Positions 36,693-55,661 of a DNA stretch of 64,000 nt are shown here, one piece after another. Source of the DNA: an uncultured Gammaproteobacteria bacterium. GTDB lineage: Bacteria > Pseudomonadota > Gammaproteobacteria > JABCZS01. The DNA lies in assembly GCA_963848305.1 (NCBI GenBank), contig CAWKDC010000003.1, positions 151,398 through 215,397 on the forward strand, in the 5' to 3' direction. The position numbers and the translations under genes were made by a program. The notes beneath the pieces were generated by a model, which did not search any database, was not told the DNA's origin, and saw only the letters and a list, made by a program, of their open reading frames with translations. Position 1 is the first letter of the stretch. Each line of letters begins with the position of its first letter.

Positions 36693-39044
36693 ATGACAAC
36701 ACCAGATCCCCTGACAGCAATGACCCCTGCCCAGCGCTACGAAGCAGTAGGGCGACACTATGGAGATTCTGAGCACTCTACCGTTTTTCGGCGCCTTAGA
36801 CATCAACGCAACCTGATCACAATGAGCGATGCACTTCACGTCACGCCTGATGCAGACTCAGACCAGCTGATAAGAATCAAAACTGCATTAAAAGATTTAA
36901 CACAAATCCCGGGTTGGGCTACAAAATCATTCGAAGAACAGTGTCCCTTCATTCAAGACAGATTGGCTGCTTATGGCATTTATCTCTCACCCGGTCAAGT
37001 CGTGAATTATTTCAAAGATCCAAATGACAGCACGAAATTAAACGCTCTATTGCTACAACCCTTAACAGTTCCCCCAGCTGCTTTAACAGCTGCCGACAAT
37101 GCGCGTCATAAATTGCTGTTTCAAATCTTGCATGATGCCATCGTTGAAGATTTAAAAACAAAAGATCAAACCCTCAAGAACAAACCAGCCTCCACTGTGG
37201 CCAAACTCAATGTCTGTCTGGAACGTGTGAAAAAAGCGCTTCAACAGATTAATGATGCCGACGGTACCCCAGCGCATCCTTATAAATCGTTGAATGATCT
37301 TTACCTCATCCTCAAAACCACGACTGGGGATAAAGACAATCAAGCCAAAGAATGGGATGTGTTGTTTGCTGAGATGAAGCTAGATCAAAAGGGCAAGAAC
37401 GTCGAACGTAACGCCTATGTCGCAGCAGAATATTATCGTCTGGCGGAGAACCATGGTTTGCGTGAATTGGGTGGCGATTCATTATTTGTCAAGCAAGCGG
37501 GCACGGAACTGGGTGCTCCTGCTACCCTCCGTCGCGTGCATGATGCCAAGACGCGTCGAGGCGCTGATACCCTGCAATCCATTGAAGGGCATAAAAGGGT
37601 GATTTCTTATGTCAATTTGCCGTACACGTCTGAAGTCCTGGCAAGGATCATCAATGAGTCTCTCACCCTGGATACTTTTGCGGCCGCAGAAAAAGGTATT
37701 GGCGGTAAGCCCAACCCCTTTTTCAAACTGCCTAAATTTAAAATTGGCGACAGCGATAAAATCTATATGTATGCTGTGAAATTGGACGGTGACGAATTAA
37801 AATGGTTCAAGCAAGAACTCGTTGAATCTGAGCCTAAAACAAACCCTCCCACTTATTCCAAACAAGGCAACCCTAGCTTGTTGAGTCAATCGCAGATAAG
37901 GTTGATCAAAAACGTTGATGGTTCCGCCATGGCAGAAGATTTTTTTGATCAAGTGCTCAAGGCGCAAGATGAACTGATCAAAGCCTACGATTTTAACGTG
38001 AAATCAGATACGGGCATGACCAATGCATCATTGGTCGGTGATGCTGAGCCCATGGTGTTTGAATTTTCAGATGCCAGATTGAGTTCTGCTGCTCCCGAAC
38101 CTGCCCCTGCCCTTTCAGATGAAGACAAGCATGCACACCTTGCCGCTGTTTGGGGTGTGATGCTTGAGAAAGTGCTGAAGATCGAGGCCACAGAATTTGA
38201 TGCGTTTCGAGATGCGGTTGTTGCATTGATTGACGGGGAAAATGTACGCATGGGCTCTCCTCCAGCGCCAGCCCTCCTTGACAGATTGTCGTCCGCAGTT
38301 GGGGATGAACAGTCATTATTAGAAGAGATTGTTGAGAATATACGTAACGCTCTAAACGATGCAAAAGGTTCGCGCCTCATGCCTGCGGAAATAGCCATTT
38401 TGAATGCGCTCGTTGCTCAATATGACACATCCAGGCCTACTGACCGCGCTTCATTCAACACAATGCTGACGACAAACAATATTGAATTGGACAAGGCAGT
38501 TCCTCCAGGGCTAGAAAGAGCATTATTCAGAGCGCAGTCGCATCGTATTGCTGATCGTGAGCCCCTCACGCTATTCGGTCATGCCGAGGCTTCAGATGCC
38601 TTCCGTTTCAATGTGTTGACAAGCATGGGAAATGATTATCTTACTTATGGCTTCGCAAAATATGTCAATGCAGCTGGTACCAATCCCATTGTGATTGAAA
38701 TCGATGGTCAACAATATGCTTTCAAGCCAACAGAAACAAGTGGGGGTAACAACAGTTATGCAGTGTATACATGGAATAGTGATGGCAGTGAGGGCGGTAT
38801 TTATATCCCTGAGAACAAGGAAAAAGAACTAGCATTCCGCGCAGGTTTGGCGCAATGCCTATTGAAGAAGGCGAAAGAGGCGCTCCCGGCAACATCGACG
38901 GCTGAACGTGATGCACTGGACAAAGTAAAAATCCTCATGAGTGGCAAGAATGACAAGGGAGAGCCCTCGGTGGTGAGACATGAGTGGAATAAGCCACTCA
39001 GCGAAGCAGACAAGACTTCAAGTAAGCTTAAACCTGGCAGCTAA
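36693..39044 (+). CDS. hypothetical large soluble protein (783 aa from ATG 36693; the track ORF starts at a TTG at 36663)
   Basis: Long uninterrupted ORF with a good RBS. No TM segment, signal peptide or recognisable domain. Confidence 0.6.
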   Translation: MTTPDPLTAMTPAQRYEAVGRHYGDSEHSTVFRRLRHQRNLITMSDALHVTPDADSDQLIRIKTALKDLTQIPGWATKSFEEQCPFIQDRLAAYGIYLSPGQVVNYFKDPNDSTKLNALLLQPLTVPPAALTAADNARHKLLFQILHDAIVEDLKTKDQTLKNKPASTVAKLNVCLERVKKALQQINDADGTPAHPYKSLNDLYLILKTTTGDKDNQAKEWDVLFAEMKLDQKGKNVERNAYVAAEYYRLAENHGLRELGGDSLFVKQAGTELGAPATLRRVHDAKTRRGADTLQSIEGHKRVISYVNLPYTSEVLARIINESLTLDTFAAAEKGIGGKPNPFFKLPKFKIGDSDKIYMYAVKLDGDELKWFKQELVESEPKTNPPTYSKQGNPSLLSQSQIRLIKNVDGSAMAEDFFDQVLKAQDELIKAYDFNVKSDTGMTNASLVGDAEPMVFEFSDARLSSAAPEPAPALSDEDKHAHLAAVWGVMLEKVLKIEATEFDAFRDAVVALIDGENVRMGSPPAPALLDRLSSAVGDEQSLLEEIVENIRNALNDAKGSRLMPAEIAILNALVAQYDTSRPTDRASFNTMLTTNNIELDKAVPPGLERALFRAQSHRIADREPLTLFGHAEASDAFRFNVLTSMGNDYLTYGFAKYVNAAGTNPIVIEIDGQQYAFKPTETSGGNNSYAVYTWNSDGSEGGIYIPENKEKELAFRAGLAQCLLKKAKEALPATSTAERDALDKVKILMSGKNDKGEPSVVRHEWNKPLSEADKTSSKLKPGS

Positions 39045-39882
39045 TAGCACATACATTGCCACACTGATCGTCAATCCCAGCACCGCATTGCCTTTAAAAA
39101 ATGCCAGCGGTGAACGGGTGATCCATTGTTTCAATACCCATGGGTATAAAACGAAACACAGTATTGCGCCTATCAACCCCGCATAAAGGGTGGAAGTATG
39201 TGCCCCGGCAATCCCTAATAATACAAAGAAACCTGCATATCCTACACATAATGCAATATCCAGATATCGTCCCAAACTCAATGCGCTCGAACGCAGACCA
39301 ATGCGTTGATCATCTTTTTGATCGGCCAATGCATACACGGTATCGTACGTGAAGTGTCCACACCACGCTCGCGAGATACAACGCAAAAGCGCGGGAAGAC
39401 AATGCGCCCGCTTGCGCGAACACCATCAAGACACCCATGTTGAAAGTGATGCCCAATATTAATTGAGGATAAGCAAAAAAGCGTTTGGTGAGGGGATACA
39501 ATACCGTTAATGCAGCGGCGAACAGTGCTAAACAACGCGCAGGATTGTTCAGGAAAAACAGCAATCCCAATAAACACACAGTTAAGATCAATAAAGCGCC
39601 ATATGCCTCAGTCACTGACACTGCACCTGTGACGAGTGGCCGTTGTTTCGTGCGTTCAACATGCCCATCAAACCCTCGATCACACAGATCATTGATGATG
39701 CAACCCGCAGCGCGCGTCAACACCACACCAAGTGTGAATACGATGACCATCAAAATGGGGGGATGGCCTTGATACGCTAAGAGCAATGCCCATGACACAG
39801 GAAAAAATAATAAGAGCGTGCCGATCGGTTTATCAAACCGCATGAGTTGCCAATATGCGATGAATTTAGGTTGGGTCAGCAT
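39018..39882 (-). pseudogene. ubiA: 4-hydroxybenzoate polyprenyltransferase, interrupted by a frame shift
   Basis: MLTQPKFIAYWQLMRFDKPIGTLLL...CIINDLCDRGFDGHVERTKQRPL is in ORF 39310..39921. FTYDTVYALADQKDDQRIGLRSSALSLG is in ORF 39018..39386. The junction is at about 39349-39358 and fits one extra base. Confidence 0.85.
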
Positions 39883-40396
39883 GCAAAAAAATCTCCACGA
39901 TAGATATTCGTTCACCTTCAACGTCGTACACCCTTTCGCGTGCGGGAGTAATGGGCGGGAAGGGCAGGGGCGGTAATGTCAATGTAAGCGTATTCAGATC
40001 GCGCAAATTAAAACTGATTGCCTCGTGATGCGTCTGTTGAAACAACCAATCTCCCAATGGCTGATCACCCAGCGTGGCCAACCCAGGCAGACGCTTGTAG
40101 CTCTCGCTGCTCATGCGTGTTCGGGCAAAGACAATGGGCACGTCATCCCCCAGCATCAAGACTTCCCTGACCCAATCACCGTTTTGATGGGTTTCAGACA
40201 AACGCTGAATTTGGACAGATGAGTAAGATTGACGCAGGGCCGCGGTTAAAGATCCTTCTACGGCCAGGAGTGCTTGAATCTTGGGCGCAAGAGTGCCATC
40301 ATGCGTCATCGCAAGAGGAGAAGCGGGACATGGCATCACACAGTTCTTTGGCATTGTTGCGGGTACTCGCTGATGGAGAGTTTCATTCCGGGGCAT
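39866..40396 (-). CDS. ubiC: chorismate pyruvate-lyase
   Basis: LLAVEGSLTAAL and GDQPLGDWLF motifs. Overlaps the ubiA start. The true start is uncertain (ATGs at 40396, 40354, 40336, 40309), and the longer options overlap the divergent birA 5' end. Confidence 0.7.
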   Translation of the reverse strand: MPRNETLHQRVPATMPKNCVMPCPASPLAMTHDGTLAPKIQALLAVEGSLTAALRQSYSSVQIQRLSETHQNGDWVREVLMLGDDVPIVFARTRMSSESYKRLPGLATLGDQPLGDWLFQQTHHEAISFNLRDLNTLTLTLPPLPFPPITPARERVYDVEGERISIVEIFLHADPT

Positions 40397-42928: not shown

Positions 42929-44483
42929 TTATTGGCTAGCAGGAAGCACTGCATTGACCGCGGCCCTTGCATCTAATGCGTAGGTGTTTGTCGTGCATCC
43001 GCTTTCATTACAATGATTATAGGTATCGGCCGATCCTTGCAAACTGTTCACGATACTATTAAATGTATAGCTTGTGCTGTTATGCTTTAAAACGCTTATC
43101 ATATTGGCCACGGCAGCAGTCACGTGGGGTGTGGCCATAGATGTGCCTTGGTAATACACCCAGGCGCTTTTGCCTCTTTGTGCAGGAGATTGAAATGCTT
43201 GAAGCGAAGACCAAATGGTTGAGTAGACTTGACCATTGGGATTATAAATGGTGCTGTCTCCGCCTGATGCTGCAATGGTGGTTGGACCGAAAGTTACTGT
43301 AGAACGCGAGTTGGTTCGTTGGGCCTTTGGCTGCCACCGAAATGATATTTTCACAACCTGCAGGTGAGAAATCTGCAACACTGGAATCAGAGTTCCCGGC
43401 CGCGGCGACCACGATGCCGCCTGCTGCAATCACGGCATTGATGGTTTGTTGAAAAACGGTATTGTGACAAGATTCTGCAGCACCCAAACTCATGTTCAAT
43501 ACTTGTGCAGGATATGCGTTGACGGGCACAGTTTGTTGGGGTGTACTGATATTAATTCCTACCGCCCACAACATCCCATTCACGACATCCGATAGATATC
43601 CACCGCATTTACCGAGTACGCGGACAGGCACTATTTTAGCGCCATATGCACCGCCCGACATATATAGCGGTGTTGATGAAGCGTACCCATTTCCAGCAAT
43701 CAGGCCCGTGACATGTGAACCGTGCCAGCTGGAATTTTCTACCGGGCAACCACTGAAAAATCCCCTTGAGTTCCGAATATCAGATGGTGAGATAAAATCG
43801 CCTAAGTCTAACGCATTGGCTTGATAGTTAATAGCGGCTTTTTTAGTAGATGTAGACGCTGCACAACTGCCTGCGATTCGGCAATCTGAAATGATTTGAT
43901 AACCGTATTGCGTGCCATCGGGTGTCAAAGGTTGTAGTGCAGTCACAATATTGGTGTTCGGTGTATAGCCCGTATCGATCACGGCAACAACCACGCCCTC
44001 TCCTGGTATAAGGCTATTTTCATTGAGTAACTCCCAAGCATTCACGAAATTATCGCCACCCCAATTGGCTCCTGTTCTGGGGGGTGTATAACTTCCGATG
44101 GCATCCATATCCCATTGTGCACGATTGATTTGGTTGACAGCAGTGGCCTGGGTTTGCAGCATGATATCTTCTGTAAAATAGACAACATCAGCGGATTGTT
44201 GTACTTGCTCAATAAATTGTGCTGTGTTTTCATGGGATAAGTTTTGATCCAGCACAATCACATGTGCACCAATGGCGAGTGGCCATAATTCTGTGGCATT
44301 AACAGTCCTGCCAGAGACTTGTGTTGCTGTTTGAGACAGTGTATCGATCCAGTCGAGGGGTAAAGAGGCCATCATGCCGTTTTGGGATTTTTGTGGTGAG
44401 GTGGTACTGATGATAAAACGTTCAGCCGCAAATGCATGCGTTGCAAGCAAAGCACACAATAAAATTGGGCACAGTCTTGTCAT
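42929..44483 (-). pseudogene. secreted subtilisin-family (S8) serine protease, interrupted by a frame shift
   Basis: Signal peptide MTRLCPILLCALLATHAFA (GGAGG 5 nt upstream). Catalytic Asp (VAVIDTG) and His (HGSHVTG) are in ORF 43242..44744. Ser (GTSMATPHV) is in ORF 42929..43429. The junction ...AFYSNF / GPTTIAASGG is at about 43286-43293. Confidence 0.82.
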
Positions 44484-44608
44484 CATAACCTCCATGTCTG
44501 TCAGTACCGAAAGTGTAGCATATTGCGATGTGGTGAGTGGGATCTTCGTTCCCTTATAGGGGCGTCTACATGGGAGGCTCTGTGCCTGATGCCTCTTCGA
44601 GGCTGAAA

Positions 44609-44990
44609 AGTCGCACATTATCATGACACAAGAACGCAGGATAGGATAAAATACCATGAGCGCTGAAGGCGCGAGAGAAAATGTCACGAGACTCGAAGAG
44701 CACCCCATTATCATGAAACAAGGGCCCAGGCCGAAGGCCTGCAAGCAAATAGCCCAGGGTCAGGTGCGCAAAGCGCACCGCAACCCTGGGTTTAATAGGA
44801 TAAAATATCACGAGCGCTGAAGGCGCGAGAGAAAATGTCACGAGACTCGAAGAGCACCCCATTATCATGAAACAAGGGCCCAGGCCGAAGGCCTGCAAGT
44901 CAATAGCCCAGGGTTGCGGTGCGCAAAGCGCACCGCAACCCTGGGTTTGATAGGATAAAATATCACGAGCGCTGAAGGCGCGAGAGAAAT
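44609..44990. repeat. tandem array of ~154-bp composite palindromic units (REPIN/BIME-like), left of the yhcG-like gene
   Basis: Unit starts (GCACCCCATTATCATG) at 44700 and 44854, preceded by a degenerate partial unit. Each unit carries hairpins CAGGCC-GAA-GGCCTG and CCCAGGGT..GCGCAAAGCGC..ACCCTGGG (a perfect 18-bp stem at about 44908-44946) and two AAAAT(A/G)TCACGAG boxes. Confidence 0.85.
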
Positions 44991-45130
44991 AAAAATTCAA
45001 GATATTAATAACCGTTATTAAGTCAATTGTAATTTGATATTGCAGTGTGTTTCATCTTGTCTCACTGATTGCTGGATATGAAGAAGCCCCGTGAGCCCAA
45101 TTAAAACAACACGACGATAAGGATATAAAA

Positions 45131-46168
45131 ATGACCAAAGAATTATTCAACCTTCCAGTAGATTATACGGATTGGCTTATCAGTTTAAAGCAGCGCATCA
45201 GTGGTGCTCGTCAGCGAGCGGCGCTTGCAGCCAATCATGAACAAATCAAACTTTATTATGATATCGGAAAGGAAATTTTGGATCGCCAGAACCAGCAAGG
45301 ATGGGGTGCTAGTGTCATTGATAGGCTTTCCTCCGATCTTCGTGCGGCTTTTCCTGAAATGAAGGGTCTGTCGCCAAGAAACTTGAACTATATGAAGAGG
45401 TTCGCTGATGAATGCCCCAATCTTCTAATTTTGCAGCAATCTGCTGCAAAATTGCCCTGGTTCCATATTGTAACCCTTATCACCAAAGTAGCGGACCCTA
45501 AAGAGCGGGAATGGTATGCCATTCAGGCTACTCAGCAAGCCTGGCCCCGCGTAACCCTTGAGCTGCATATCAAAAACAATCTGTTTCAGCGTCAGGGTGC
45601 CGCCCCTAATAATTTTAAACAGCATTTTTCTGAACCTCATGCGGATCTTGCTGCTCAAATTTTAAAGGATCCCTATCATTTCGATTTTCTGGGACTGGGA
45701 GATGAGGCCCACGAGCAAGACATTGAATCAGCACTGATCCGTCACATCACACGATTTTTGCTTGAACTGGGCGCAGGCTTCGCCTTTGTTGGCCGGCAAT
45801 TTCGTTTGGAGGTGGAAGGCAGTGAGTTTTTCATTGATCTGCTGTTCTATCACACACGGCTCAAATGTTATGTGGTGGTTGAATTAAAGGCCACAGATTT
45901 CAAGCCAGAGCATGCAGGGCAGTTAAATTTTTACCTGGCTGCCGTCGACAATCAAGTCAAAGCACCTGACGACAAACCAACTATCGGCATATTGCTGTGT
46001 AAAACAAAAAAGCAATTGATCGCAGAATATGCTTTATCTGGTATTAAAAAGCCAATGGGAGTGGCTGAATATGAGCTTGTTCGAGCATTGCCTGATCCTC
46101 TTGATACCAATTTGCCGAGCATCGAAGAGCTTGAAATGGCGCTTTCTCAAGACTTATCTGATGAATGA
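45131..46168 (+). CDS. YhcG/DUF1016-family PD-(D/E)XK nuclease domain protein
   Basis: 345-aa ORF. N-terminal DUF1016-like region (LISLKQRISGARQRAALAANHEQIKLYYDIGKEIL...WGASVIDRLSSDL). C-terminal nuclease core (IDLLFYHTRLKCYVVVELK). Confidence 0.75.
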   Translation: MTKELFNLPVDYTDWLISLKQRISGARQRAALAANHEQIKLYYDIGKEILDRQNQQGWGASVIDRLSSDLRAAFPEMKGLSPRNLNYMKRFADECPNLLILQQSAAKLPWFHIVTLITKVADPKEREWYAIQATQQAWPRVTLELHIKNNLFQRQGAAPNNFKQHFSEPHADLAAQILKDPYHFDFLGLGDEAHEQDIESALIRHITRFLLELGAGFAFVGRQFRLEVEGSEFFIDLLFYHTRLKCYVVVELKATDFKPEHAGQLNFYLAAVDNQVKAPDDKPTIGILLCKTKKQLIAEYALSGIKKPMGVAEYELVRALPDPLDTNLPSIEELEMALSQDLSDE

Positions 46169-46221
46169 TACCATTATCAACTATTTGTTCATTTGCTTGA
46201 AGAAAGATCTAAATAGGCAGT

Positions 46222-46243
46222 TGTAGGGCGCATACTTGTGCCC
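46222..46243. repeat. REP-like element (degenerate TGTAGGGCGCA copy)
   Basis: TGTAGGGCGCATACTTGTGCCC, downstream of the yhcG-like gene. Confidence 0.4.
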
Positions 46244-46310
46244 GTGCGCCGATGGCGCGTGGGATATAATGCACTGCAAATGAACATGACAAATCGCCCC
46301 CTCACAATGC

Positions 46311-47218
46311 TCGCAGGCCGAAGGCCTGCAAGCAAATAGCCCAGGGTCAGGTGCGCAAAGCGCACCGCAACCCTGGGTTTGATAGGATAAAATATCACGA
46401 GCGCTGAAGGCGCGAGAGAAAATGTCACGAGACTCGAAGCGCACCCCATTATCATGAAACAAGGGCCCAGGCCAACGGCCTGCAAGCAAATAGCCCAGGG
46501 CCAGGTGCGCAAAGCGCACCGCAACCCTGGGTTTGATAGGATAAAATATCACGAGCGCTGAAGGCGCGAGAGAAAATGTCACGAGACTCGAAGCGCACCC
46601 CATTATCATGAAACAAGGCCCAGGCCAACGGCCTGCAAGCAAATAGCCCAGGGTCAGGTGCGCAAAGCGCACCGCAACCCTGGGTTTAATAGGATAAAAT
46701 ATCACGAGCGCTGAAGGCGCGAGAGAAAATGTCACGAGACTCGAAGCGCACCCCATTATCATGAAACAAGGCCCCAGGCCAAAGGCCTGCAAGTCAATAG
46801 CCCAGGGTCAGGTGCGCAAAGCGCACCGCAACCCTGGGTTTGATAGGATAAAATATCACGAGCGCTGAGGGAGCGAGAGAAAATGTCACGCGCTTTCAGC
46901 GCTACCTTCAATCAACTGATCGTTACCTGGGGCGTTGCCCCAGGCTATTAACTCACAGGCCTTCGGCCTGATCGGGTTTTTAAAGGTCGGATGATGAAAA
47001 TTTGGATTTCTTCAGACTCAAAGAGCACCCCATTATCATGAAACAAGGGCCCAGGCCAACGGCCTGCAAGCAAATAGCCCAGGGCCAGGTGCGCAAAGCG
47101 CACCGCAACCCTGGGTTTAATAGGATAAAATGTCACGCGCTTTCAGCGCTACCTTCAATCAACTGATCGTTACCTGGGGCGTTGCCCCAGGCTATTAACT
47201 CACAGGCCTTCGGCCTGA
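46311..47218. repeat. tandem array of 153-154-bp composite palindromic units plus two inverted diverged units (REPIN/BIME-like)
   Basis: Unit starts at 46441, 46595, 46748 and 47025. Two ~92-bp identical segments (about 46880-46971 and 47127-47218) contain the same three hairpin types in the opposite orientation (AGCGC/GCGCT, CCTGGGGC-GTT-GCCCCAGG, CAGGCC-TTCG-GCCTG). Confidence 0.85.
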
Positions 47219-47238: not shown

Positions 47239-47282
47239 AGCTGGCAACAGGAATCGAACCCGTGACCTACTGATTACAAATC
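47239..47282. repeat. att direct repeat (duplicate of the 3' 44 nt of tRNA-Thr)
   Basis: AGCTGGCAACAGGAATCGAACCCGTGACCTACTGATTACAAATC is identical to 55662-55705. The sequences diverge immediately after it. Confidence 0.9.
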
Positions 47283-47426
47283 GGGCACGATACTTGTTTC
47301 ATCAGTGTTCACCATGCTTCATATAATTACACAGTTTCATTCAAAAACCCCTATTTTGATAGTGTTATTCGTAGTAACATAGTGCAGGGCGTTTCATCTC
47401 GTTTCACTGATTGCCACCTTCACAGA

Positions 47427-47446
47427 GGAACCCTATGAGGAACCCC
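47427..47446 (+). promoter_or_regulatory. tandem GGAACCC(C) repeats near the integrase-proximal island end (candidate integrase arm-type sites)
   Basis: GGAACCCTATGAGGAACCCC with 12-nt periodicity. The same motif recurs at 55575-55611 at the other island end. Confidence 0.3.
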
Positions 47447-47480
47447 AATATTTGTAATTAAACTAACGGAATAGAAGTTA

Positions 47481-48701
47481 ATGCAATTTACAGAAAAACA
47501 GATACAAGCGCTGAAACCCAAAGAACAGCGATATGATATTCGAGAAAAAAGTGGGAGTGGGTTCGCGGTACGTGTTTTTACCTCGGGCGAAAAATCTTGG
47601 ATATTCTTTTATAACTTTGAGGGAAGAAAACGTCGCATGACCCTGGGTAGTTATCCAGCGCTTAGTTTAAGCGAGGCGAGATCTCTTCATCGTAATGCTC
47701 TAACCATCTTAGCTCATGGGAATGATCCCGGTTTAAGCAAACAGAAAGAAAAACTTGAAACGCGCTTATCTGCCACCATCGAAGCTCTAATTCACGAATA
47801 TATAGAAAAATGGGCTAAGCCTCGCAAGCGTTCATGGCAAGAAGATGAAAGAATTTTACTAAAAGATGTTCAGCCCGCATTCAGAAACAGAAAGGCCAGA
47901 GACATCACAAAGCGCGACATCCTGTTGCTTCTAGACAAAATCAAAGAACGAAACGCCCCAATTGCCGCCAACCGTACATTGGCTTGCGTGAGACGGCTGT
48001 TTAATTTTGCTGTCGAGCGAGACATCATCACCAGCAGCCCTTGCTCATCAATCAAAGCACCTGCCAAAGAGAATCGTCGCGAACGTTGTTTATCGCTTGA
48101 TGAAATTAGGTGTGTTTGGGACGGCCTGCCTAAGGCACGCATGTCGCTAAGTACTCAGCTTGTTCTTAAATTCCAGCTTGTCACAGCGCAGCGTAAAGGC
48201 GAGGTCATTACTGCTGAATGGAGCGATTTTGACATTACTGCTGGCTGGTGGACGATCCCTGCTTCAAAAGCAAAAAATGATCATGTAAATCGAGTCCCGC
48301 TCTCAAAGCTCGCGATTCAACTCCTTGATGAAATTAAAACGATATCAGGTGATTCGCACTGGCTTTTCCCTGCCGTTCGAGGTGATGGACATATCGGAGG
48401 CCAATCCATTGATCACGCAGTGCGTAGAAGTATTGAAGTATTTGAGGTCATAGATCCGTGGACACCACACGATCTCAGAAGAACTGCGGCCACTCACATC
48501 ACTGGCATGGGTATACCTCGTCTCGTTGTGAGCAAACTTCTAAATCATGCGGAGAATAGTGTGACAGCTATTTATGACCGCCATAGCTATGATGCTGAAA
48601 AAAAGCATGCTTTAGATGTCTGGGCGACGAAATTGCAAAATCTGATCGATGGCGTTGACTCTTCCGACAATATCATTGCATTGAAAAAAATCGGGGGTTG
48701 A
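47481..48701 (+). CDS. int: tyrosine-type site-specific integrase (P4-like, DUF4102 arm-binding N-domain)
   Basis: 406-aa ORF. N-terminus LKPKEQRYDIREKSGSGFAVRVFTSGEKSWIFFY...MTLGSYPALSLSEAR. Catalytic region with TPHDLRRTAATH and AIYDRHSY. Confidence 0.9.
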   Translation: MQFTEKQIQALKPKEQRYDIREKSGSGFAVRVFTSGEKSWIFFYNFEGRKRRMTLGSYPALSLSEARSLHRNALTILAHGNDPGLSKQKEKLETRLSATIEALIHEYIEKWAKPRKRSWQEDERILLKDVQPAFRNRKARDITKRDILLLLDKIKERNAPIAANRTLACVRRLFNFAVERDIITSSPCSSIKAPAKENRRERCLSLDEIRCVWDGLPKARMSLSTQLVLKFQLVTAQRKGEVITAEWSDFDITAGWWTIPASKAKNDHVNRVPLSKLAIQLLDEIKTISGDSHWLFPAVRGDGHIGGQSIDHAVRRSIEVFEVIDPWTPHDLRRTAATHITGMGIPRLVVSKLLNHAENSVTAIYDRHSYDAEKKHALDVWATKLQNLIDGVDSSDNIIALKKIGG

Positions 48702-48704
48702 TCA

Positions 48705-49517
48705 GTGGAGAGCGAAAAATTTCAAGAAATAGCTTTAAACGATTTAAAGACATCACCGACGTTTGGTGGTATGGAAATGCCCCGAAAATCAAATCCTAGA
48801 AAATCATCTCCCAAAAAAAGAAAGAAAGCAAAAAGGTACAAACCGATTGCACTGCATCTTTCTGATGAAAAGATTGCGGCAATTAAGGCTGATTTAGCAG
48901 TAATTGGAAAAAAATATGGTTTCAAGGAGGACTATGATCTTTATCAAAATCTACTTTCCTTGCGGAGTCACGTTGACGCACATGAGATTGCTGTAATGAA
49001 CTACCCTCGTCCAGCAGAAACAAAAGACCAATTGGTAAACCTGTTGAAGACAGCCAAAGAGCTGAGCAGACTCTTTGCTAGAAATACTGCATTACAAACA
49101 AAGATTCGCTTACTAGAAGCTCCTGAATTATTTGCTCAGAGGGGATACACGAATCTAAAGCGCCAAAATGGTGATTGGCATTTTAATCAATTTCAAAAAG
49201 ATCTTGATGTATTAATCAGGAATGCTCATTTTGCATTGGAACTTGTACCTGTAGATCAAGGTGGTAGGAAGGCATTTTGTAGAGCAGAAACGGCTATATT
49301 TTGGCTTGCTTCTTATTTTGGACAGGGCACAGATACGATACCTAGATGTGGCGAGAAGTATGAAAAGAATTGTTACATCGGAGAATTTTATGACTTTATA
49401 TTAGACATCGAGGGATGTCTAAATGATGTAGGTATAGACCTGCCCAATCGTAAAACAATTGGAAAATACGCGACAATACAGTCCTCAAGATATAGAGCAT
49501 TAATTGGCAAGAAATAA
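48705..49517 (+). CDS. hypothetical island protein (270 aa, Lys/Arg-rich N-terminal segment)
   Basis: GTG-start ORF 4 nt after the int stop. PRKSNPRKSSPKKRKKAKRYKP basic tract. No recognisable domain. Confidence 0.5.
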   Translation: MESEKFQEIALNDLKTSPTFGGMEMPRKSNPRKSSPKKRKKAKRYKPIALHLSDEKIAAIKADLAVIGKKYGFKEDYDLYQNLLSLRSHVDAHEIAVMNYPRPAETKDQLVNLLKTAKELSRLFARNTALQTKIRLLEAPELFAQRGYTNLKRQNGDWHFNQFQKDLDVLIRNAHFALELVPVDQGGRKAFCRAETAIFWLASYFGQGTDTIPRCGEKYEKNCYIGEFYDFILDIEGCLNDVGIDLPNRKTIGKYATIQSSRYRALIGKK

Positions 49518-49643
49518 CAATCCATACTGGTGAACAGTGACACTACTTCTTTCAAAAAAGCATAGGTAGCGTCGCTGTGATCAATCAACAACGATGTGGT
49601 CTACTGAATACCGTTAAGCAATGGTAATTTAGGAGACACTAAC

Positions 49644-49838
49644 ATGCAATCTTGTCCTACCCAAAGCTCTTTGATTCGATACAAAGCATTAAAACAGCTA
49701 ATTGGCGTCAGTCGCTCCACAATATTCAGATGGGAGCGTGACTCAAAGTTTCCACATCATTTCAATTTAGGTGGTAATACTATCGCCTGGCGCCTATCAG
49801 AGGTGGAGGAGTGGATTGCAGAAAAACAAAAAGCTTAA
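49644..49838 (+). CDS. alpA: AlpA-family phage regulatory protein / excisionase-like HTH
   Basis: 64-aa ORF. LIRYKALKQLIGVSRSTIFRWERDSKFPHHFNLGGNTIAWRLSEVEEWI is typical of Phage_AlpA. Confidence 0.85.
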   Translation: MQSCPTQSSLIRYKALKQLIGVSRSTIFRWERDSKFPHHFNLGGNTIAWRLSEVEEWIAEKQKA

Positions 49839-49912
49839 GCATCAAAGGTAGCGCCGAAGGCAGGAATGGCAATCGGCGCAAATTAAGTTTCAAACACACA
49901 GGATTATACCAT

Positions 49913-50896
49913 ATGGACAAATATATTGGTTTCAATAGAAACAACCTCCCCACCCCCACTGAAGTTTTAAATATGCTCAGCATCAAAATACCCAAGCCTA
50001 ATCGAGGTGGATTTTTTGAAATAACATGCCCCGTACATTCTGGCGGCAAAGAAAAGCATCCTTCACTACATGTGCACAATGTGGACGGTTATTTTTTGTG
50101 CCAAGCCTGCAACGTTAAAGGTGGTGATGTCATCGATCTTTGGTGCCTTTATACAAGAGAAAATTTTAAGCAGGCAATTCAATCATTGGGGTGCAGTGAT
50201 GATGCGGCTTTAGGAAGTGTAGTGTCACATGCCATGCCTTACTTCGAGAGAATGCTCGAAACTGGGAAGGACATACTCAAAGATAAACAAGAGAAAGCTC
50301 GGCTGTTAAAAAAGTCTGTGATGCGCCATAAACGCCTGGCCCAGCCAGCACCTGAAACCCATGGTTATTTGAAGCTTAAAGGGATCAAGCTTCAAAATCT
50401 GAAGGTTGTTGACGGGTACTTGATCATCCCTATGTACACTGGTCGGTGTCAGCTTGTTTCCTATCAGCGTATCTGGCCTGATCGTACAAAAAAAGTTTTA
50501 GCAAATACCCCTGTCTCGGGGTTATATGGCCTTGTCGGCCTTTACGATGAGACCAAGCCCATTATCATATGCGAGGGGCTCTCAAAAGCCTACGCAATCT
50601 GGGCAAGCCTGGGTATCGCATGTTTTATATCATTTGGACATAGTAACCTTACTGATGCTCTTAAAACAATCCTGATGCATTTTCAGCACAATGCTGAGGT
50701 GATCATTGCGGCAGATAACGATCCGCACGGATTTGGCTTAGAATCCGCAAGAAAGGCATTGGAATCCTTGAAGCTATATCGAATTAAAAATGTACGAATA
50801 GCTATCCCTAAAAAAATTGGTGAAGATTTTTGCGATCTTTATCAAGCTGAAGGCGCTGCTGCCCTTGTTGCTTTATTCGATGAGGTGATGGCATGA
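49913..50896 (+). CDS. DNA primase-like protein (CHC2-type zinc finger + Toprim)
   Basis: CPVHSGGKEKHPSLHV...FLCQACNVKGGDVIDL zinc-binding region. Toprim-like IIICEGLSKAYAIW...IAADNDPHG. The track ORF starts at 49811; the ATG at 49913 is preferred. Confidence 0.75.
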   Translation: MDKYIGFNRNNLPTPTEVLNMLSIKIPKPNRGGFFEITCPVHSGGKEKHPSLHVHNVDGYFLCQACNVKGGDVIDLWCLYTRENFKQAIQSLGCSDDAALGSVVSHAMPYFERMLETGKDILKDKQEKARLLKKSVMRHKRLAQPAPETHGYLKLKGIKLQNLKVVDGYLIIPMYTGRCQLVSYQRIWPDRTKKVLANTPVSGLYGLVGLYDETKPIIICEGLSKAYAIWASLGIACFISFGHSNLTDALKTILMHFQHNAEVIIAADNDPHGFGLESARKALESLKLYRIKNVRIAIPKKIGEDFCDLYQAEGAAALVALFDEVMA

Positions 50897-52757
50897 AAAC
50901 AGACATTGACATAATTAACTGCGAACAATGCGAACAGCGTGAACAACCCAATGGCAACGTGGATTTACAAGGTTCGCATGACAAAACAGCATCTGCGAAC
51001 GTTGCGAACGATTCACATATAAACGATCATGATGAGTTGATGACAAAGATTCTGAGACCATCGTTCATTTGTCATGTTAATCCCTTTGTAAGAGATGGCA
51101 ATGAGATGAGGGAGGGTCTTTATTGGCATAATGTCGTGTCCACGAATGATGGGCGAGTGGAAGTTGATGAATGGATCTGCACACCATTGCGTGTAGTTGC
51201 AATATCTTCATCGCCCAAAAGCGACTTTTTTGGCCGGCTTCTCGAATTTCAAGATAGCAACGGAAAATGGCACACATGGGCGATGCCTATGCATTTGCTA
51301 AAAAGCACTGGTGATGAATTGCGTGCAGAACTGTTAGACAAAGGGCTAATTTTCGATCAGAAAAAACGTAACTTACTTACTCAATATATTTTGAGTGCAA
51401 ACTCTGAGAGAAAAATTATTGCCGCAAGCACTGTTGGCTGGCACAAAAACTCTTTTGTTTTACCCGGTCATGTGATCGGCAATGATGATGTGATTTTTCA
51501 GTCCGAAGAGGCAGAGAATGATGAATTTGTAACGACCGGCACGCTCGATGGTTGGCAGACTGAAATTGGACTACATTCCGAGAATAATATCCCTTTAATG
51601 GTCTCAATCTCAGCTGTCCTTGCGGGCCATTATTTCGACGAGCCAATCGTCAGCAAGGTGGAGGTATTCATTGGATCGGGGATTCATCATCCGGAAAATC
51701 CACTTGCGTTGAAGTTGCGGCATCAGTTTGGGGTTCGCCTGAGCTCATACGCTCCTGGAGTGCCACTGCCAATGGTTTAGAAGGTATAGCATCTGTCCGC
51801 AATGATCTGTGTCTATTGTTGGATGAAATTGACGAGGCCTTGACGGATGAAGTCGGTAAGATTGTTTATTTGCTTGCAAATGGACGTGGAAAGCAACGAG
51901 CTGGACGCACTGGTTTAGCAAGAAAAACCAGCAAGTGGTGCACAATGACAATTTCTACTGGCGAGCGTGATTTGTCATCAATCATTGGCGAGTCGGGTAA
52001 GCGTGCGAATGCGGGTCAAATGGTGCGCCTTCTCAACATACCTTCCCGTTTCGAGCATGGTGTTTTTAGTGACTTGCATGGTTTTTCAGGTGGACGTGCT
52101 CTTGCCGATCACTTGAAAGTTAAGAGGTTAGAACATCACGGGCATGTTGGTCCAGCCTTTATCAGAAAGTTAATTGATGAAAGGGGGGATTTGAGTGAAA
52201 AGCTAGAAATGTTAACCAAACAGCTGATCACCTGCGCGATGTCTCATCTCGAAGAGCGTGCTGCAGGCTTATTTGCACTTATAGCCTTAGCAGGTGAATT
52301 GGGAATTGAGTATGGGCTGTTGCCGTGGAAAGAAGGGGGGGCTATTAATGCGGTTACAGAGGCCTTCCTAAGGTGGCAGGAATTCCATGGCGTTGGACAT
52401 ACAGAAGATCAGCAGATCCTTAAATCAATAAGTAGTTACATTGAGAAATACGCAGATTCTCGATTTTCCTCATATAAAGAAAATTCTGACAATCAAGACA
52501 GCAGGCCTGTGAATGTCCGTTCTGGCTGGTTTAAAGAGGATGATAAAAATGGACGCGTTTACATGTTTACAGGTGAAGCACTTGACGAAGCAGCCGGGCG
52601 ATATCCACGTCAACGCATTATTGATGCATTGAACAAATATGGCTGGATTGCAGAAAGAAGTGATAAGCGATGGACCAAAAAGGTCAGAGTACAGGGGATG
52701 ACTAATGGAAAAGAACTCTATCACATCAGAGAGGTTGAGCTTGATCATGGGGATTGA
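50893..52757 (+). pseudogene. DUF927-family replicative helicase-like protein, interrupted by a 1-nt frame shift
   Basis: ORF 50893..51780 has the DUF927-like N-domain (WICTPLRVVA...FGRLLEFQDSNGKWHTWAMP). My translation of a third frame reads PLFRRANRQQGGGIHWIGDSSSGKSTCVEVAASVWG (Walker A) and runs into ORF 51816..52757. The junction is at GCGGGCCATT, about 51623-51628. Confidence 0.75.
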
Positions 52758-53163
52758 TGAAGTCATTAACAAGTTTTGTTCGCAGCCTATAGCGCGTCGC
52801 GAACATGTTGCGAACGCCAAAACGTCCGCCATTCCTGGACGTTCGCACCGTTCGCAGTGTTCGCACCAGCAAATCGTTACATCGAATCCAAAATCAACCT
52901 ATCAGCTTGTTGAGGAATTTATTGACAAGGCGGCTGGGCTTGGTGTTGATTTATCATGGGATGATCAACGGTGGCTGAAGAACATGCTCTGGGATGTTAA
53001 CATGGCTGATGCCCATAAATTGTTATGTCAGTATTACATTGAATGGTGTGACGGTGCAGCTGCTGAAAAAATGGAGCACAAGAAGTGTAATGCTGGCCGA
53101 CTTCGTGCTAACACTTTTTTGCGTGAAACTCTTTCATCAATGCACCAATGGAGAAAAAAATGA
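52705..53163 (+). CDS. hypothetical island protein (152 aa; start may be the ATG at 52747)
   Basis: The ORF overlaps the helicase 3' end. No recognisable domain. Confidence 0.4.
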   Translation: MEKNSITSERLSLIMGIDEVINKFCSQPIARREHVANAKTSAIPGRSHRSQCSHQQIVTSNPKSTYQLVEEFIDKAAGLGVDLSWDDQRWLKNMLWDVNMADAHKLLCQYYIEWCDGAAAEKMEHKKCNAGRLRANTFLRETLSSMHQWRKK

Positions 53164-53759
53164 ACGTAGAAGATATCAATAAGCCCAAAATTTATCATGT
53201 AAACAATCAAAAAGTTGAGGCCGAGCAGGGTATCAAATTTCGTGCGGATTCGAGTGATGGGCAGATACAATCGGATCAAATCACAAAACAACTTAATGAA
53301 GAGAGCAAGGAATATAAGATTGCAGAAGCAAAAGCATTTGCCGGAAGCTGGGGACAAACCACTCTGACTATTGAAATGTTGTGCGGTAGTCGCCTCGACA
53401 TTAATTGCCTGATGGATGAGCTCAAAGTACAGATAAGGGAGCTCGTTGATGATGGTTCTCGTCAGAGCGCAATCATGTTGGCCAGCAGCTCCATCGCGTT
53501 AAATGTGCTTTCCCACAATTTGCTGCGTAATTCAAGCAAAGCAGTGAGCGTCGAAGAAGGCTTGGCACGCGCCGATCTTGCTCTGAAATCATTCGATCAG
53601 GTTCGAAAAATGCTGTTAGCGTTGGATCAAATAAAAAGACCCAGGCAGCAGATTACTCAAAACAACTATTTGCAAGAATCCGTGCAAACAAACATTTTAG
53701 ATCCTCAAAACGAAAAGGTAGGGTCAACATTAAAGGGGGTGAACGATGAAGCAACGTAG
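53148..53759 (+). CDS. hypothetical island protein (203 aa)
   Basis: Overlaps both neighbouring ORFs, suggesting one operon. No recognisable domain. Confidence 0.45.
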   Translation: MEKKMNVEDINKPKIYHVNNQKVEAEQGIKFRADSSDGQIQSDQITKQLNEESKEYKIAEAKAFAGSWGQTTLTIEMLCGSRLDINCLMDELKVQIRELVDDGSRQSAIMLASSSIALNVLSHNLLRNSSKAVSVEEGLARADLALKSFDQVRKMLLALDQIKRPRQQITQNNYLQESVQTNILDPQNEKVGSTLKGVNDEAT

Positions 53760-53964
53760 GTGGAACGAGGATCAGCGCAGACAACACAGTCAATTGATTC
53801 ATAATGTTAGGCCCTGGGAATCTGGTACAGGCCCTCGTACGCCCGAGGGGTTGGCTATCAGCAAGATGAACGCCTTACGAACTGGTCTATATGCTGCTGA
53901 GCTTCGTGAGGCAAGAAGGCATTTAGCGGAATGCAGAAGATTAACAAGAAATATAGCAAGCTAG
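53746..53964 (+). CDS. hypothetical small basic island protein (72 aa)
   Basis: The GPRTPEGLAISKMNALRTGLYA segment resembles small conserved proteins I recall near integrases. Function unknown. Confidence 0.4.
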   Translation: MKQRRWNEDQRRQHSQLIHNVRPWESGTGPRTPEGLAISKMNALRTGLYAAELREARRHLAECRRLTRNIAS

Positions 53965-54068
53965 CTTATATATGTATTTTTATCAGAACCATTCATCCGG
54001 TTGCACTGGTGTGCAAGAAAGTGTATCATTCTTCAAACTGAAAACCCATTGAGTAGTAGGAGGGGTAG

Positions 54069-54554
54069 ATGAAGTTGGTAGTGAGAGGCCTGATCATGCT
54101 GGCAGGGATGGCTCTGGTCTTGCCTATATATGCGAGCACAATGACAGCAACGTGCATGAACTTTGAAGGGCCACAAACAGATTACATAACAAACGCAATT
54201 AATCCTGACAGTGATATAGCCTTCAATAAATTCGATGATCATAAATCAAAAATAAGTGGTGAAAAATCAATCCTCATTTGGGAGCAGGGTAATAGCACTG
54301 CAAAAATTATGTTTAAAGGAAATGAAGCAAATGCTGCTGAACACTGGCACGATCTCATTTTGCTATCAAATGAAACCGCTCATGGTGAGCAACAAGTGAC
54401 TTTTATTGGCATGTCTAGGGGTGCTCCAATCATGTATTCCGTTTACCCAGAGAGCAATGTTGTGATTTTTTCACAGCATAGTCACTGGAGCTTTGTGATG
54501 GAAGGTGTAAGGACTTTCATGTTCCATTCAAAATGCGATATTAAATTCAAATGA
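54069..54554 (+). CDS. hypothetical secreted protein (161 aa, signal peptide)
   Basis: N-terminal MKLVVRGLIMLAGMALVLPIYAS, with GGAGG upstream. No recognisable domain. Confidence 0.5.
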   Translation: MKLVVRGLIMLAGMALVLPIYASTMTATCMNFEGPQTDYITNAINPDSDIAFNKFDDHKSKISGEKSILIWEQGNSTAKIMFKGNEANAAEHWHDLILLSNETAHGEQQVTFIGMSRGAPIMYSVYPESNVVIFSQHSHWSFVMEGVRTFMFHSKCDIKFK

Positions 54555-54586
54555 TTTTCTGAAGCCGAAGACACTGGAACAGTATT

Positions 54587-54985
54587 GTGATAAACAAGTT
54601 GATAGCTTTTAAATATTTTCTCACGGCAACAATTTTGTTAGCAAATACCATCGCAATGGCCGAATGGACAAGTGTGCTTTCAGAAAAGAATAGGACGTCA
54701 TATATTGATTTCGCTACACTCAAAAAAACAGGAGGTTTCGTAAAAGTATGGGGTATGGATGAATTTAAAACACCAGAAAAATTTGGGAAAGATAATGTTT
54801 CTTCGCTCAGCACACAATATGAATTTAACTGTAAAGAGAGATCAACTAGAATTATTGCTGGTTATTCCTATAATGAAATCGGGGAGGTTGAGGATTTTTT
54901 TTTACAACCAACGGACTGGCTACCAATTCCGCCAGGATCAAGGGCTGATATCATCATGAGCAAAGTTTGTGATGATGCTGATTAA
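54587..54985 (+). CDS. secreted protein resembling the surface-adhesin E (Adhesin_E) family
   Basis: GTG start and signal peptide (LTATILLANTIAMA). Pattern W..V....SYIDF.T......VKVW......S....YEFNCKERS.R......Y...G.......WLPIPPGS......VC matches my recollection of Adhesin_E proteins. Confidence 0.45.
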   Translation: MINKLIAFKYFLTATILLANTIAMAEWTSVLSEKNRTSYIDFATLKKTGGFVKVWGMDEFKTPEKFGKDNVSSLSTQYEFNCKERSTRIIAGYSYNEIGEVEDFFLQPTDWLPIPPGSRADIIMSKVCDDAD

Positions 54986-55030
54986 TATCCCCTGTATCAT
55001 ATTTGGACGTCAGCGCATTGACGATCGTAG

Positions 55031-55537: not shown

Positions 55538-55574
55538 TTAATCTCCCTATTTTCAATGAAGTCCATCTCTCAAA

Positions 55575-55611
55575 GGAACCCCACGGGGAACCCCAGGATT
55601 GTCCAGAACCC
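55575..55611 (+). promoter_or_regulatory. GGAACCCC repeats near the tRNA-proximal island end (candidate integrase arm-type sites)
   Basis: GGAACCCC at 55575 and 55587 (12-nt spacing), plus AGAACCC at 55605. Confidence 0.3.
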
Positions 55612-55661
55612 AAGAAGAGGGCAGGATATTTTTAACCTATTGTTCTTATTGTTTTAATTAA

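Follow-up and report, generated by a model that had tools for sequence, protein, structure and literature searches.

The 64-kb stretch of DNA analyzed here (the window, part of a 243-kb contig) contains two arrays of a hairpin-rich 154-bp repeat, one on each side of yhcG, a gene for a PD-(D/E)XK nuclease. The arrays are genuine and well above chance. They are probably a locus-restricted, strain-variable REP-like minisatellite in the native flank of a tRNA-Thr gene, with an embedded, decayed island remnant that carries an unrelated yhcG. Judging from sequence comparison, yhcG itself is horizontally mobile, candidate defense cargo with no demonstrable tie to the repeats.

Two arrays of a 154-bp repeat

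The left array (44609-44990) comprises ∼2.5 units; the right one (46314-47218) contains, besides ∼3.7 units, a partial unit and two inverted-type segments of 95 bp (Table 1). The presence of the same unit on both sides of yhcG, first reported in the earlier note, was confirmed by TRF (in the right array, 46314-46890, period 154, 3.8 copies, 96% matches), by a repeat search that retrieved six in-register unit copies, with starts at 44573, 44727, 46314, 46468, 46621 and 46898, and by motif counts compared with those in shuffled sequences: 8 matches against 0 expected for the 28-nt H2 arm, 9 against 0.06 for CAGGCC-N3-GGCCTG, and 6 against 0 for the AT-rich spacer. Several details of the arrays had to be revised. 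The periods in the right array are 154, 153 and 154 nt, within the 154/153-nt range given previously but not in the series of 154, 154, 153 and 153; such one-base differences may be indel noise because several genes that other assemblies show intact are split in the window. On the left, where two full units and a partial one had been described, 44727-44880 is indeed full, whereas the leftmost unit has lost its H1-H2 module. The two inverted segments at the right end are present, with a length of 95 nt rather than ∼92 nt, and the last forward unit of the right array breaks off at box B, giving way to the first of these segments.

No decayed units scoring above shuffles were found in the 145-bp spacer that follows yhcG or in the window-specific stretch 44531-44615. 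The first bases of this spacer are part of a 22-nt Fur-box-like motif with a second copy at 55946.

A coding role of the arrays was rejected on account of the 154/153-nt period and the lack of homologs of the pseudo-ORFs. As suspected previously, the ORFs that run through the arrays are mere translations of the repeat: the 203-aa array pseudo-ORF matched only itself among 5.8 G proteins, and itself plus two spurious sequences among 1.84 G representative proteins. One of these spurious matches is an unrelated satellite of 53 bp x 80 (L053). The CRISPR and integron attC readings were dropped as well, there being no variable spacers, no cas genes and no intI.

Table 1. Features of the repeat locus and of the adjacent tRNA-Thr island (positions in the window)
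Feature	Position	Strand	Remarks
Left array, unit without the H1-H2 module (deleted)	44609-44726	+	Leftmost partial unit
Left array, full 154-bp unit	44727-44880	+	
Left array, unit truncated after GAGAGAAA	44881-44990	+	
Island att-arm/promoter-like region upstream of yhcG	44991-45130	+	∼76% identical to 47330-47480
yhcG, DUF1016_N + YhcG_C PD-(D/E)XK nuclease, 345 aa	45131-46168	+	Full-length Pfam matches
Unique 145-bp spacer, yhcG to right array	46169-46313	none	No significant similarity to the unit
Right array	46314-46876	+	Forward units start at 46314, 46468, 46621 and 46775
Inverted-type segment 1	46877-46971	+	H3', short H2' (CCTGGGGC-GTT-GCCCCAGG), H1'
Linker of ∼34 nt, then partial forward unit	46972-47123	+	H1 at 47052, H2 arm at 47088-47115
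Inverted-type segment 2	47124-47218	+	99% identical to segment 1
Displaced 3' fragment of tRNA-Thr(TGT), 44 nt	47239-47282	-	100% identical to 55662-55705
Integrated island, 8.4 kb	47283-55661	+	Bounded by 44-nt tRNA-Thr direct repeat
Tyrosine integrase with arm-binding domain	47481-48701		Island gene
AlpA	49644-49838		Island gene
CHC2-Toprim primase	49811-50896		Island gene
Intact tRNA-Thr	55662-55734	-	Far end of the island

Hairpins of the unit and comparison with REP elements

Each unit consists of the hairpin H1, an 11-nt CTATT-type linker, the hairpin H2, a third small hairpin (H3), two short direct boxes and an AT-rich spacer. Like REP and BIME elements, which are imperfect extragenic palindromes of 20-40 nt, H1, H2 and H3 are short palindromes in intergenic DNA. 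The initial reading of the arrays as palindrome mosaics of the REP/BIME type, with inverted doublets in places, holds: each of the hairpins folds well, the single unit folds with z = -4.7 on the plus strand and -4.0 on the minus strand, and forward and inverted-type segments pair long-range as single-stranded DNA (46770-46975, minimum-energy fold, z = -8.4), the arms at 46775-46807 and 46938-46970 being 82-85% complementary. Inverted REPs that form such a long hairpin characterize REPIN doublets, yet most of the units here are direct repeats. One hairpin differs in sequence between copies while its palindrome stays perfect. The H2 stem, described as up to 18 bp long, is perfect in a single copy (44907-44945, in the truncated left unit) but contains an internal loop in the other six of the seven, with the 5' arm reading TCAGG or CCAGG. 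The two AAAAT(A/G)TCACGAG boxes are in place, at a spacing of 30 nt, not 32. Since the hairpins lack U-tracts, there is no clear sign that they act as classical terminators.

In Pseudomonas fluorescens SBW25, REPs are known to form ordered tandem arrays, with a period of 184 bp (Bertels & Rainey 2011, PMC3116915). The arrays analyzed here resemble the SBW25 REP/REPIN clusters and the E. coli BIMEs in being extragenic tandems of near-identical copies in the same orientation, with units in the 150-190-bp range that combine two different short GC-rich palindromes with a spacer, and in the occasional inverted partners that give long hairpins. They differ from both in that neither dispersed copies nor a RAYT were seen in the 64-kb window, that each unit contains an extra third hairpin and two direct boxes, and that the foot of the hairpin is ATAG rather than GTAG. 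Specifically, AATAG precedes H2 in the forward units and CTAT follows the hairpin in the inverted-type segments; only TAG is common with the GTAG tetranucleotide that TnpA-REP requires at the 5' foot of the hairpin (PMC3479197), and the array hairpins thus lack this signature of REP/RAYT systems.

These comparisons bear on the possibility that the units belong to an active REPIN/REP population mobilized by a RAYT encoded elsewhere, with this locus being one tandem cluster, which appears unlikely. Such an origin is consistent with the conserved TAG at the hairpin foot (ATAG before H2, and likewise in the complement of the GG-CUA of Acido-Lenti-1, a family considered below), with the long hairpin doublet formed by forward and inverted-type segments, with the ordered tandem clusters known for REPINs and REPs (PMC3116915), and with the size of the window, which at 64 kb covers only part of the genome. 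Conversely, the foot differs from that needed by TnpA-REP (PMC3479197), and the main arrays are direct, not alternating. None of the 34 ORFs of the window scanned with Pfam matches the Y1 transposase (PF01797), in agreement with the previous statement that no RAYT lies in it, and the sole flanked gene is yhcG. REP families usually recur every few kb, but no other copy was found here: the repeat is confined to 44609-47218 and absent from the remaining 61 kb of the window, and the 15-nt H1 palindrome, with one mismatch allowed, has no other copy in the 64 kb.

Beyond the window, a 596-Gb genome collection and the metagenome and viral collections yielded no copy of the repeat apart from the same locus. 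Exact-pattern scans of genomes, metagenomes and viral contigs with the invariant H2 arm produced single chance matches only, the AT-rich spacer pattern returned nothing from viral contigs, and the array had no blastn match among plasmids and phages.

An S8 peptidase gene lies on one side of the arrays and the 3' end of tRNA-Thr on the other, and the last repeat segment is 20 nt from the tRNA-Thr fragment that marks one end of the adjacent island. In all assemblies that reach the locus (the window, L001, L002 and L003), they flank yhcG on both sides. The right array of L002 is one unit shorter, a copy-number difference that could be assembly collapse; L001 has a different left boundary, and a different perfect palindrome replaces H2. 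In a search for syntenic relatives, the nearest homolog of the S8 peptidase was only 52% identical, and the contigs that share the exact neighbors (a 359-aa protein, QueA and the integrase) are too short or broken at the repeats.

yhcG and the tRNA-Thr islands

The identification of the flanked gene as a YhcG-type nuclease stands. Both domains match Pfam over their full length (YhcG_C, 1.3e-64; DUF1016_N, 8.7e-40), with scores of 217.2 and 136.4 bits for PF06250 and PF17761 against cut-offs of ∼32.5 and 32.8, respectively, and the D...ELK motif is visible. The protein is ordinary among the YhcG/DUF1016 nucleases, with 73-84% identity to many of them (homologs with >73% identity come from Legionellales, Acidobacteria, Desulfuromonas and Polyangia), and only its repeat-rich neighborhood is unusual. 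It matches the PADLOC candidate defense family PDC-S02 at 6e-151, which points to mobile cargo; DUF1016 genes are known cargo of mobile elements (PMC4316617).

The neighboring island is bounded by a 44-nt repeat (47239-47282 and 55662-55705) with 100% identity and encodes the integrase domains expected of a tRNA-integrating tyrosine-recombinase island; an independent contig (L051) ends in both copies of the tRNA-Thr repeat. The island also encodes a DUF927 protein and an adhesin-E-like protein. The tRNA-Thr repeat, the tyrosine integrase, AlpA and the primase with DUF927 are shared with P4-like integrase/AlpA/primase elements.

The stretch immediately upstream of yhcG is similar to the region upstream of the island integrase (47330-47480), the two having in common the core GTTTCATCTyGTyTCACTGATTGC and GGAACCCC-type repeats. 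The presence of yhcG can be explained by integration history because this att-arm of a tRNA-Thr island lies on its 5' side. In other organisms, the closest homologs of yhcG are likewise found in tRNA-Thr islands, which lack the repeat, and at the same place, between the att-arm and the position of the integrase. L047 (84% identity) reads tRNA-Thr fragment, arm, yhcG, 5' remnant of the integrase, arm, tRNA-Thr; in L048 (78% identity), the gene lies between a tRNA-Thr fragment with the arm and tRNA-Thr. Unlike these tRNA islands with a cargo slot, the yhcG-bearing copy in the window lacks the tRNA fragment, the integrase and the far arm, and is embedded in a repeat array.

The earlier note had suggested that the nuclease could be functionally tied to the repeats, mobilizing, processing or targeting the flanking hairpin arrays. 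PD-(D/E)XK nucleases can be structure-specific, and the gene is bracketed by the arrays in every assembly that reaches it, but the repeat is absent from all six yhcG homolog contexts examined (77-84% identity), which are otherwise unrelated except for two in the same island slot. Moreover, the family is a widespread, solitary defense candidate, and the island arm accounts for the location of the gene. The repeat-free orthologs largely refute this link, which we now consider very improbable.

The other function proposed initially, iteron-like binding arrays, fares no better. Worked out further, the arrays would be iteron-type or crr-type binding sites, that is, a replication or partition site of the adjacent primase island or of a decayed predecessor. 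Each unit contains two direct 13-nt boxes, the neighboring island encodes a primase and a DUF927 helicase-like protein, and P4-type elements carry repeated cis replication regions. However, iterons and crr repeats lie inside the element and are shared with and bound by its replication protein, whereas these arrays are outside the 44-nt att repeats of the island, which contains neither the boxes nor any iteron family of its own. The related islands L047, L048 and L051 also lack the unit, and it is hairpin formation that is conserved rather than a particular palindrome sequence. A role of this kind is highly unlikely.

Resemblance to Acido-Lenti-1

The core of the array resembles the Rfam family Acido-Lenti-1 (RF01687; Weinberg et al. 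2010, PMC2864571). In both, an 8-bp GC hairpin and the GG-CUA that follows it are joined by an AU-rich linker of ∼11 nt to a second hairpin, of 5-6 bp, whose loop is of the CUUCGG type. The best matches, at 46926-46970 and 47173-47217, score 34.2 bits (E 2.4e-5 in a 2.9-kb search), below the gathering threshold of 37 bits, although the alignment spans model positions 1-46 of 46 and the folds agree; for the forward units, minus-strand scores range from 14 to 25 bits. Plain identity to the Acido-Lenti-1 seeds was uninformative, the best value of 33/45 being equaled by shuffled controls. The seed copies are themselves multi-copy tandem mosaics of several small hairpins, on both strands, with periods of 69-200 nt (154 bp in the arrays) and further small hairpins in their flanks. 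The forward units differ from the family in the much longer first hairpin (up to 18 bp), and the host here is apparently proteobacterial, whereas Acido-Lenti-1 comes from Acidobacteria or Lentisphaerae. Given this resemblance to seed members already found in tandem mosaics, the original suggestion that the arrangement is undescribed was too strong.

The resemblance raises the question of whether every unit represents a small-RNA gene, or else a structured RNA of the Acido-Lenti-1 class, which would make the array a tandem cluster of sRNAs read from the minus strand. Several features are compatible with such a cluster: the match to RF01687, with the scores given above for inverted-type segments and forward units, covers the full model length, sequence changes leave the hairpins preserved, a promoter-like TTGGCC-N16-GATAAT is present on the minus strand of three units, and H1 together with TTGTTTCAT is terminator-like on the same strand. 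However, the score remains under the gathering threshold, the promoter-like -35 element is found only in units with the AAC loop of H1, and the terminator-like matches (7 against 4.4 expected) are not significantly enriched. Besides, Acido-Lenti-1 itself was never shown to be an RNA, and its seed resembles a genomic repeat family. We regard an sRNA cluster as distinctly improbable. The sub-threshold link between Acido-Lenti-1 and the arrays hints that this family may be a genomic repeat and not an RNA gene.

Origin of the repeat-bracketed yhcG

In the preferred explanation, a REP-like minisatellite with an embedded island remnant, the array would occupy the native intergenic DNA that separates the S8 peptidase gene from the 3' end of tRNA-Thr, and would grow, shrink and rearrange via unequal recombination or slippage between units. 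Any effect on the cell would come from the hairpins in RNA or single-stranded DNA, which could insulate transcription or stabilize 3' ends and could be substrates of recombination. The yhcG gene would belong to the cargo that a family of tRNA-Thr-targeting islands carries between its att-arm and its integrase; the partial arm and yhcG would be what survives of a decayed island, within the array and beside a second, intact one. On this view, yhcG would have come to be bracketed incidentally, as islands integrated and decayed at a tRNA hot spot.

The following observations count against this explanation: the array is found on both sides of yhcG, where simple tandem accretion of islands at a tRNA predicts one side only; the phase of the units is broken across the insert, with ∼46 nt missing; and the tRNA fragment expected to the left of the yhcG arm is gone, no second tRNA-Thr fragment having been found left of the arrays. 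Because the phase is broken and the fragment missing, extra steps of deletion or recombination must be assumed.

A bolder extension, to which we give little credence, is that two-hairpin modules of the Acido-Lenti-1 type are a cross-phylum class of REP-like repeats, spreading and amplifying with no RAYT, whose arrays act as recombination landing pads beside tRNA integration hot spots, an array here having captured an exchangeable yhcG cassette. If true, recombination between arrays could lose or exchange the yhcG defense cassette held between direct repeats.

The locus illustrates how a striking repeat-bracketed nuclease can arise by integration and decay at a tRNA hot spot, with no functional partnership needed. 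It documents yhcG (PADLOC PDC-S02) as recurrent cargo adjoining the integrase of tRNA-Thr islands and, via a sub-threshold score, links Acido-Lenti-1, a family filed as sRNA, to REP-like tandem mosaics in an apparently proteobacterial genome.

Structure of the repeat arrays

The 154-bp repeats on either side of yhcG are real. The two arrays around this single YhcG gene, first reported in the earlier note, are confirmed by TRF, by a repeat search of the window, by Pfam and by motif counts against shuffled sequence: the 28-nt arm of hairpin H2 has 8 matches with 0 expected by chance, the CAGGCC-N3-GGCCTG palindrome of hairpin H1 has 9 (0.06 expected) and the AT-rich spacer has 6 (0 expected), and every match of these three motifs lies within 44609-47218.

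Features of the window in and around the arrays, with their positions
Feature	Position	Description
Unit copies	44573, 44727, 46314, 46468, 46621, 46898	in register, n = 6 (repeat search)
Left array	44609-44990
Right array, tandem repeat	46314-46890	period 154 bp, 3.8 copies, 96% matches (TRF)
Inverted-type segments	46877-46971, 47124-47218	95 nt each, mutual identity 99%
Possible ssDNA long-range pairing	46770-46975	forward unit with inverted-type segment, z = -8.4 (fold prediction)
yhcG	45131-46168	full-length Pfam matches, YhcG_C (1.3e-64) and DUF1016_N (8.7e-40)
tRNA-Thr(TGT)	55662-55734	minus strand
Copy of tRNA-Thr(TGT) 3' end	47239-47282	44 nt, 100% identical
guaA	18636-20200	split into two overlapping ORFs
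ubiA	39018-39921	split into two overlapping ORFs
S8 peptidase	42929-44744	split into two overlapping ORFs
DUF927	50893-52757	split into two overlapping ORFs
AATGATACCATTATCAA(C/G)TATT	46164-46185	overlaps yhcG stop codon
AATGATACCATTATCAA(C/G)TATT	55946-55967	between tRNA-Leu and queA
AATGATACCATTATCAA(C/G)TATT, 16 nt	8287-8302

Read 5' to 3' on the plus strand, the forward unit consists of H1 (CAGGCC-NNN-GGCCTG), an 11-nt linker (CAAG(CA/TC)AATAG), H2 (outer stem CCCAGGG/CCCTGGG, inner stem GTGCGC/GCGCAC, loop AAA), TTT(G/A)ATAGG, box A (AAAATATCACGAG), hairpin H3 (AGCGC-TGAAG-GCGCG), box B (AAAATGTCACGAG) and, as the last element, the spacer ACTCGAAG(A/C)GCACCCCATTATCATGAAACAAGG. Variation between copies clusters in the H1 loop (GAA, AAA, AAC), the linker, the H2 5' arm and two single positions. 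In the inverted-type segments, these three hairpin types recur in a diverged form, with order and orientation reversed. Single units are predicted to fold well on both strands (z = -4.7 and -4.0).

Several dimensions reported earlier need revision. The H2 stem reaches a perfect 18 bp in a single copy out of seven, the boxes are separated by 30 rather than ~32 nt, the inverted segments are longer than the ~92 bp first given, and the right array has periods of 154, 153 and 154 nt, where unit periods of 154, 154, 153 and 153 nt had been given. The one-base period differences may be indel noise because guaA, ubiA, the S8 peptidase and DUF927, each split in the window, are intact in other assemblies: the S8 peptidase is a single ORF in the metagenome assembly L001, as is DUF927 (621 aa) in the independent contig L051. 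The split genes suggest indel errors of the window assembly or recent pseudogenisation.

Distribution and variation

Within the 64-kb window of the 243-kb contig, from which the distribution in the source genome was judged, the repeat is local: the remaining 61 kb contain no unit-like sequence, and the 15-nt H1 palindrome, even with one mismatch, is not found elsewhere in the window. Exact scans for the invariant H2 arm in 596 Gb of species-representative genomes, JGI metagenome contigs and IMG/VR gave only single chance matches, and blastn of the array against plasmids and phages gave none. Of 5.8 G proteins, none is related to the 203-aa pseudo-ORF running through the array; among 1.84 G representatives it has two relatives only, both spurious. 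One of the latter is translated from an unrelated satellite (53-bp unit, 80 copies, 3099-7350 of the ENA metagenome contig L053) that is annotated as protein-coding genes.

A search with the exact YhcG protein found the same locus in four other metagenome assemblies. In L002, the right array has one unit fewer, which could be an assembly collapse, and L003 ends 39 nt into the array, where short-read contigs break. In the ENA assembly L001 (3392-3560, compared with 44531-44650 of the window), the left boundary differs: here, an extra variant unit, part of an inverted-type segment and a linker extend to ~40 nt from the start codon of the S8 peptidase; in the window, 78 unique nt and a deletion of H1-H2 are found instead. 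These differences and contig breaks indicate that the array is real and apparently variable; copy number and boundary apparently differ between assemblies, which, if real, is strain variation. The variant unit at the left edge in L001 carries another perfect 15-bp palindrome, GGGTCTAGGTTGTGC-ACA-GCACAACCTAGACCC, exactly at the H2 position and with identical flanks, so that the ability to form a hairpin is conserved, not the arm sequence. The adjoining S8 peptidase is at most 52% identical to any other protein (named matches come from Burkholderiales, Neisseriaceae and Aquella), and the host organism is without a close sequenced relative.

The yhcG gene as island cargo

The tRNA-Thr(TGT) gene and the copy of its 3' end enclose an integrated island of 8.4 kb (47239-55734). 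Its products are a tyrosine integrase that has an arm-binding domain, a 270-aa orphan protein, AlpA, a CHC2-Toprim primase, DUF927, several further orphans and an adhesin-E-like protein. This gene complement is that of a P4-like or satellite-like element. L051 is exactly this island, with both repeat copies at its ends. The displaced tRNA fragment lies 20 nt from the end of the right array, which places the arrays in the former native flank downstream of tRNA-Thr. The alternative of an iteron-like binding array, or one of the crr type, predicts recognition boxes in the element, but neither the unit boxes nor any iteron family was found within the island and the arrays lie beyond the att repeats, making this reading highly improbable.

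The gene itself comes from such an island. The 140 nt preceding yhcG share ~76% identity with the 150 nt in front of the integrase; both have the core GTTTCATCTyGTyTCACTGATTGC and GGAACCCC-type repeats, the latter present again at the far island end. The closest homologue (P0002, 84% identity) resides in a 1.6-kb mini-island (5769-7419 of locus L047) with the order tRNA-Thr fragment, same arm, yhcG, integrase remnant (residues 2-35), far arm and intact tRNA-Thr; P0009, from a Legionellales MAG (78% identity; L048, 5770-8962), has a tRNA-Thr fragment and arm upstream and tRNA-Thr downstream. The common arm and these layouts identify yhcG as recurrent cargo between att-arm and integrase in a family of tRNA-Thr islands. 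YhcG matches the PADLOC candidate defence family PDC-S02 (6e-151), and the candidate defence gene appears to be carried repeatedly in this slot. In the window, a decayed island piece is all that is left: yhcG, with a partial arm before it and 145 unique bp after it. The motif AATGATACCATTATCAA(C/G)TATT, which overlaps the yhcG stop codon and recurs elsewhere in the window, resembles a Fur box (GATAATGATAATCATTATC). DUF1016 genes are known to piggy-back as mobile-element cargo (PMC4316617), and YhcG homologues with >73% identity occur in Legionellales, Acidobacteria, Desulfuromonas and Polyangia.

The six homologue contexts examined (L047, L048, L049, L054, L055 and L056; 77-84% amino acid identity) are free of the unit and of adjacent tandem repeats of any kind. 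Repeat-free yhcG orthologues, which the earlier note itself had named as evidence against its proposed tie between nuclease and repeats, thus exist; a functional link of the arrays to the nuclease is not supported, and the notion that YhcG acts on the hairpins, contradicted by these homologues, has very little probability.

Relationship to known repeats

In a permissive Rfam scan, the two-hairpin core of both inverted-type segments matches Acido-Lenti-1 (RF01687) across the whole model, with 34.2 bits (E 2.4e-5; threshold 37), and the forward units score 14-25 bits on the minus strand; by Rfam's criterion, the element is outside this family. In plain sequence identity, the element is no closer to the seeds than shuffled sequence is, so the link rests on the covariance-model score and common architecture. 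The seed alignment (Weinberg et al. 2010; PMC2864571, supplementary files 61 and 183) has 89 members, most of which occur in multiple copies in Lentisphaera araneosa and Koribacter, on both strands and often with tandem spacings of 69-74, 110-115 or 192-200 nt. The seed flanks show these tandem units to be mosaics in their own right, made up of several small GC hairpins (loops of 3 nt), the same architecture as in the present array; in L. araneosa, many seeds are tandem copies, 69-200 nt apart, within larger hairpin-mosaic units. In appearance, the family is closer to a REP-like genomic repeat than to a conventional sRNA gene. Weak promoter-like and terminator-like signals on the minus strand are compatible with tandem sRNA genes of the Acido-Lenti-1 class, which, judged from sequence, would be an improbable interpretation.

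Pseudomonas fluorescens SBW25 has ordered tandem arrays of two REP types with a 184-bp period, comprising up to 12 REPs in a single orientation per array, and tandem REPIN clusters have been described as well (Bertels & Rainey, PMC3116915). Thus, this kind of object was already known, and the REP/BIME-like structural reading is reasonable. Canonical REPs differ in having the foot GTAG, needed by TnpA-REP (PMC3479197), where the hairpin foot here is ATAG, and in their dispersal, of which the 64-kb window gives no sign for this array. In line with the earlier note, no RAYT was detected in the window: Pfam scans of 34 ORFs, which took in the island genes, every non-shadow ORF of 110-320 aa and some longer ones, gave no Y1 transposase. 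A REPIN population mobilised by a RAYT encoded elsewhere in the genome is a possible but rather unlikely source of the units.

Origin of the arrays

The arrays probably represent a hairpin minisatellite of REP-like type, private or low-copy, that lies in the flank of tRNA-Thr and whose units were amplified and reshaped by unequal recombination. The hairpins may insulate transcription, stabilise 3' ends or provide substrates for recombination. The weakest point of this explanation is the route by which the island remnant would have come to lie inside the array. Simple tandem island accretion would leave an array on one side only, and the unit phase across the yhcG insert is discontinuous (~46 nt missing), so the explanation has to invoke deletions or array-mediated recombination. 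The observation of the arrays stands, and they constitute a further example of an already known kind of repeat.
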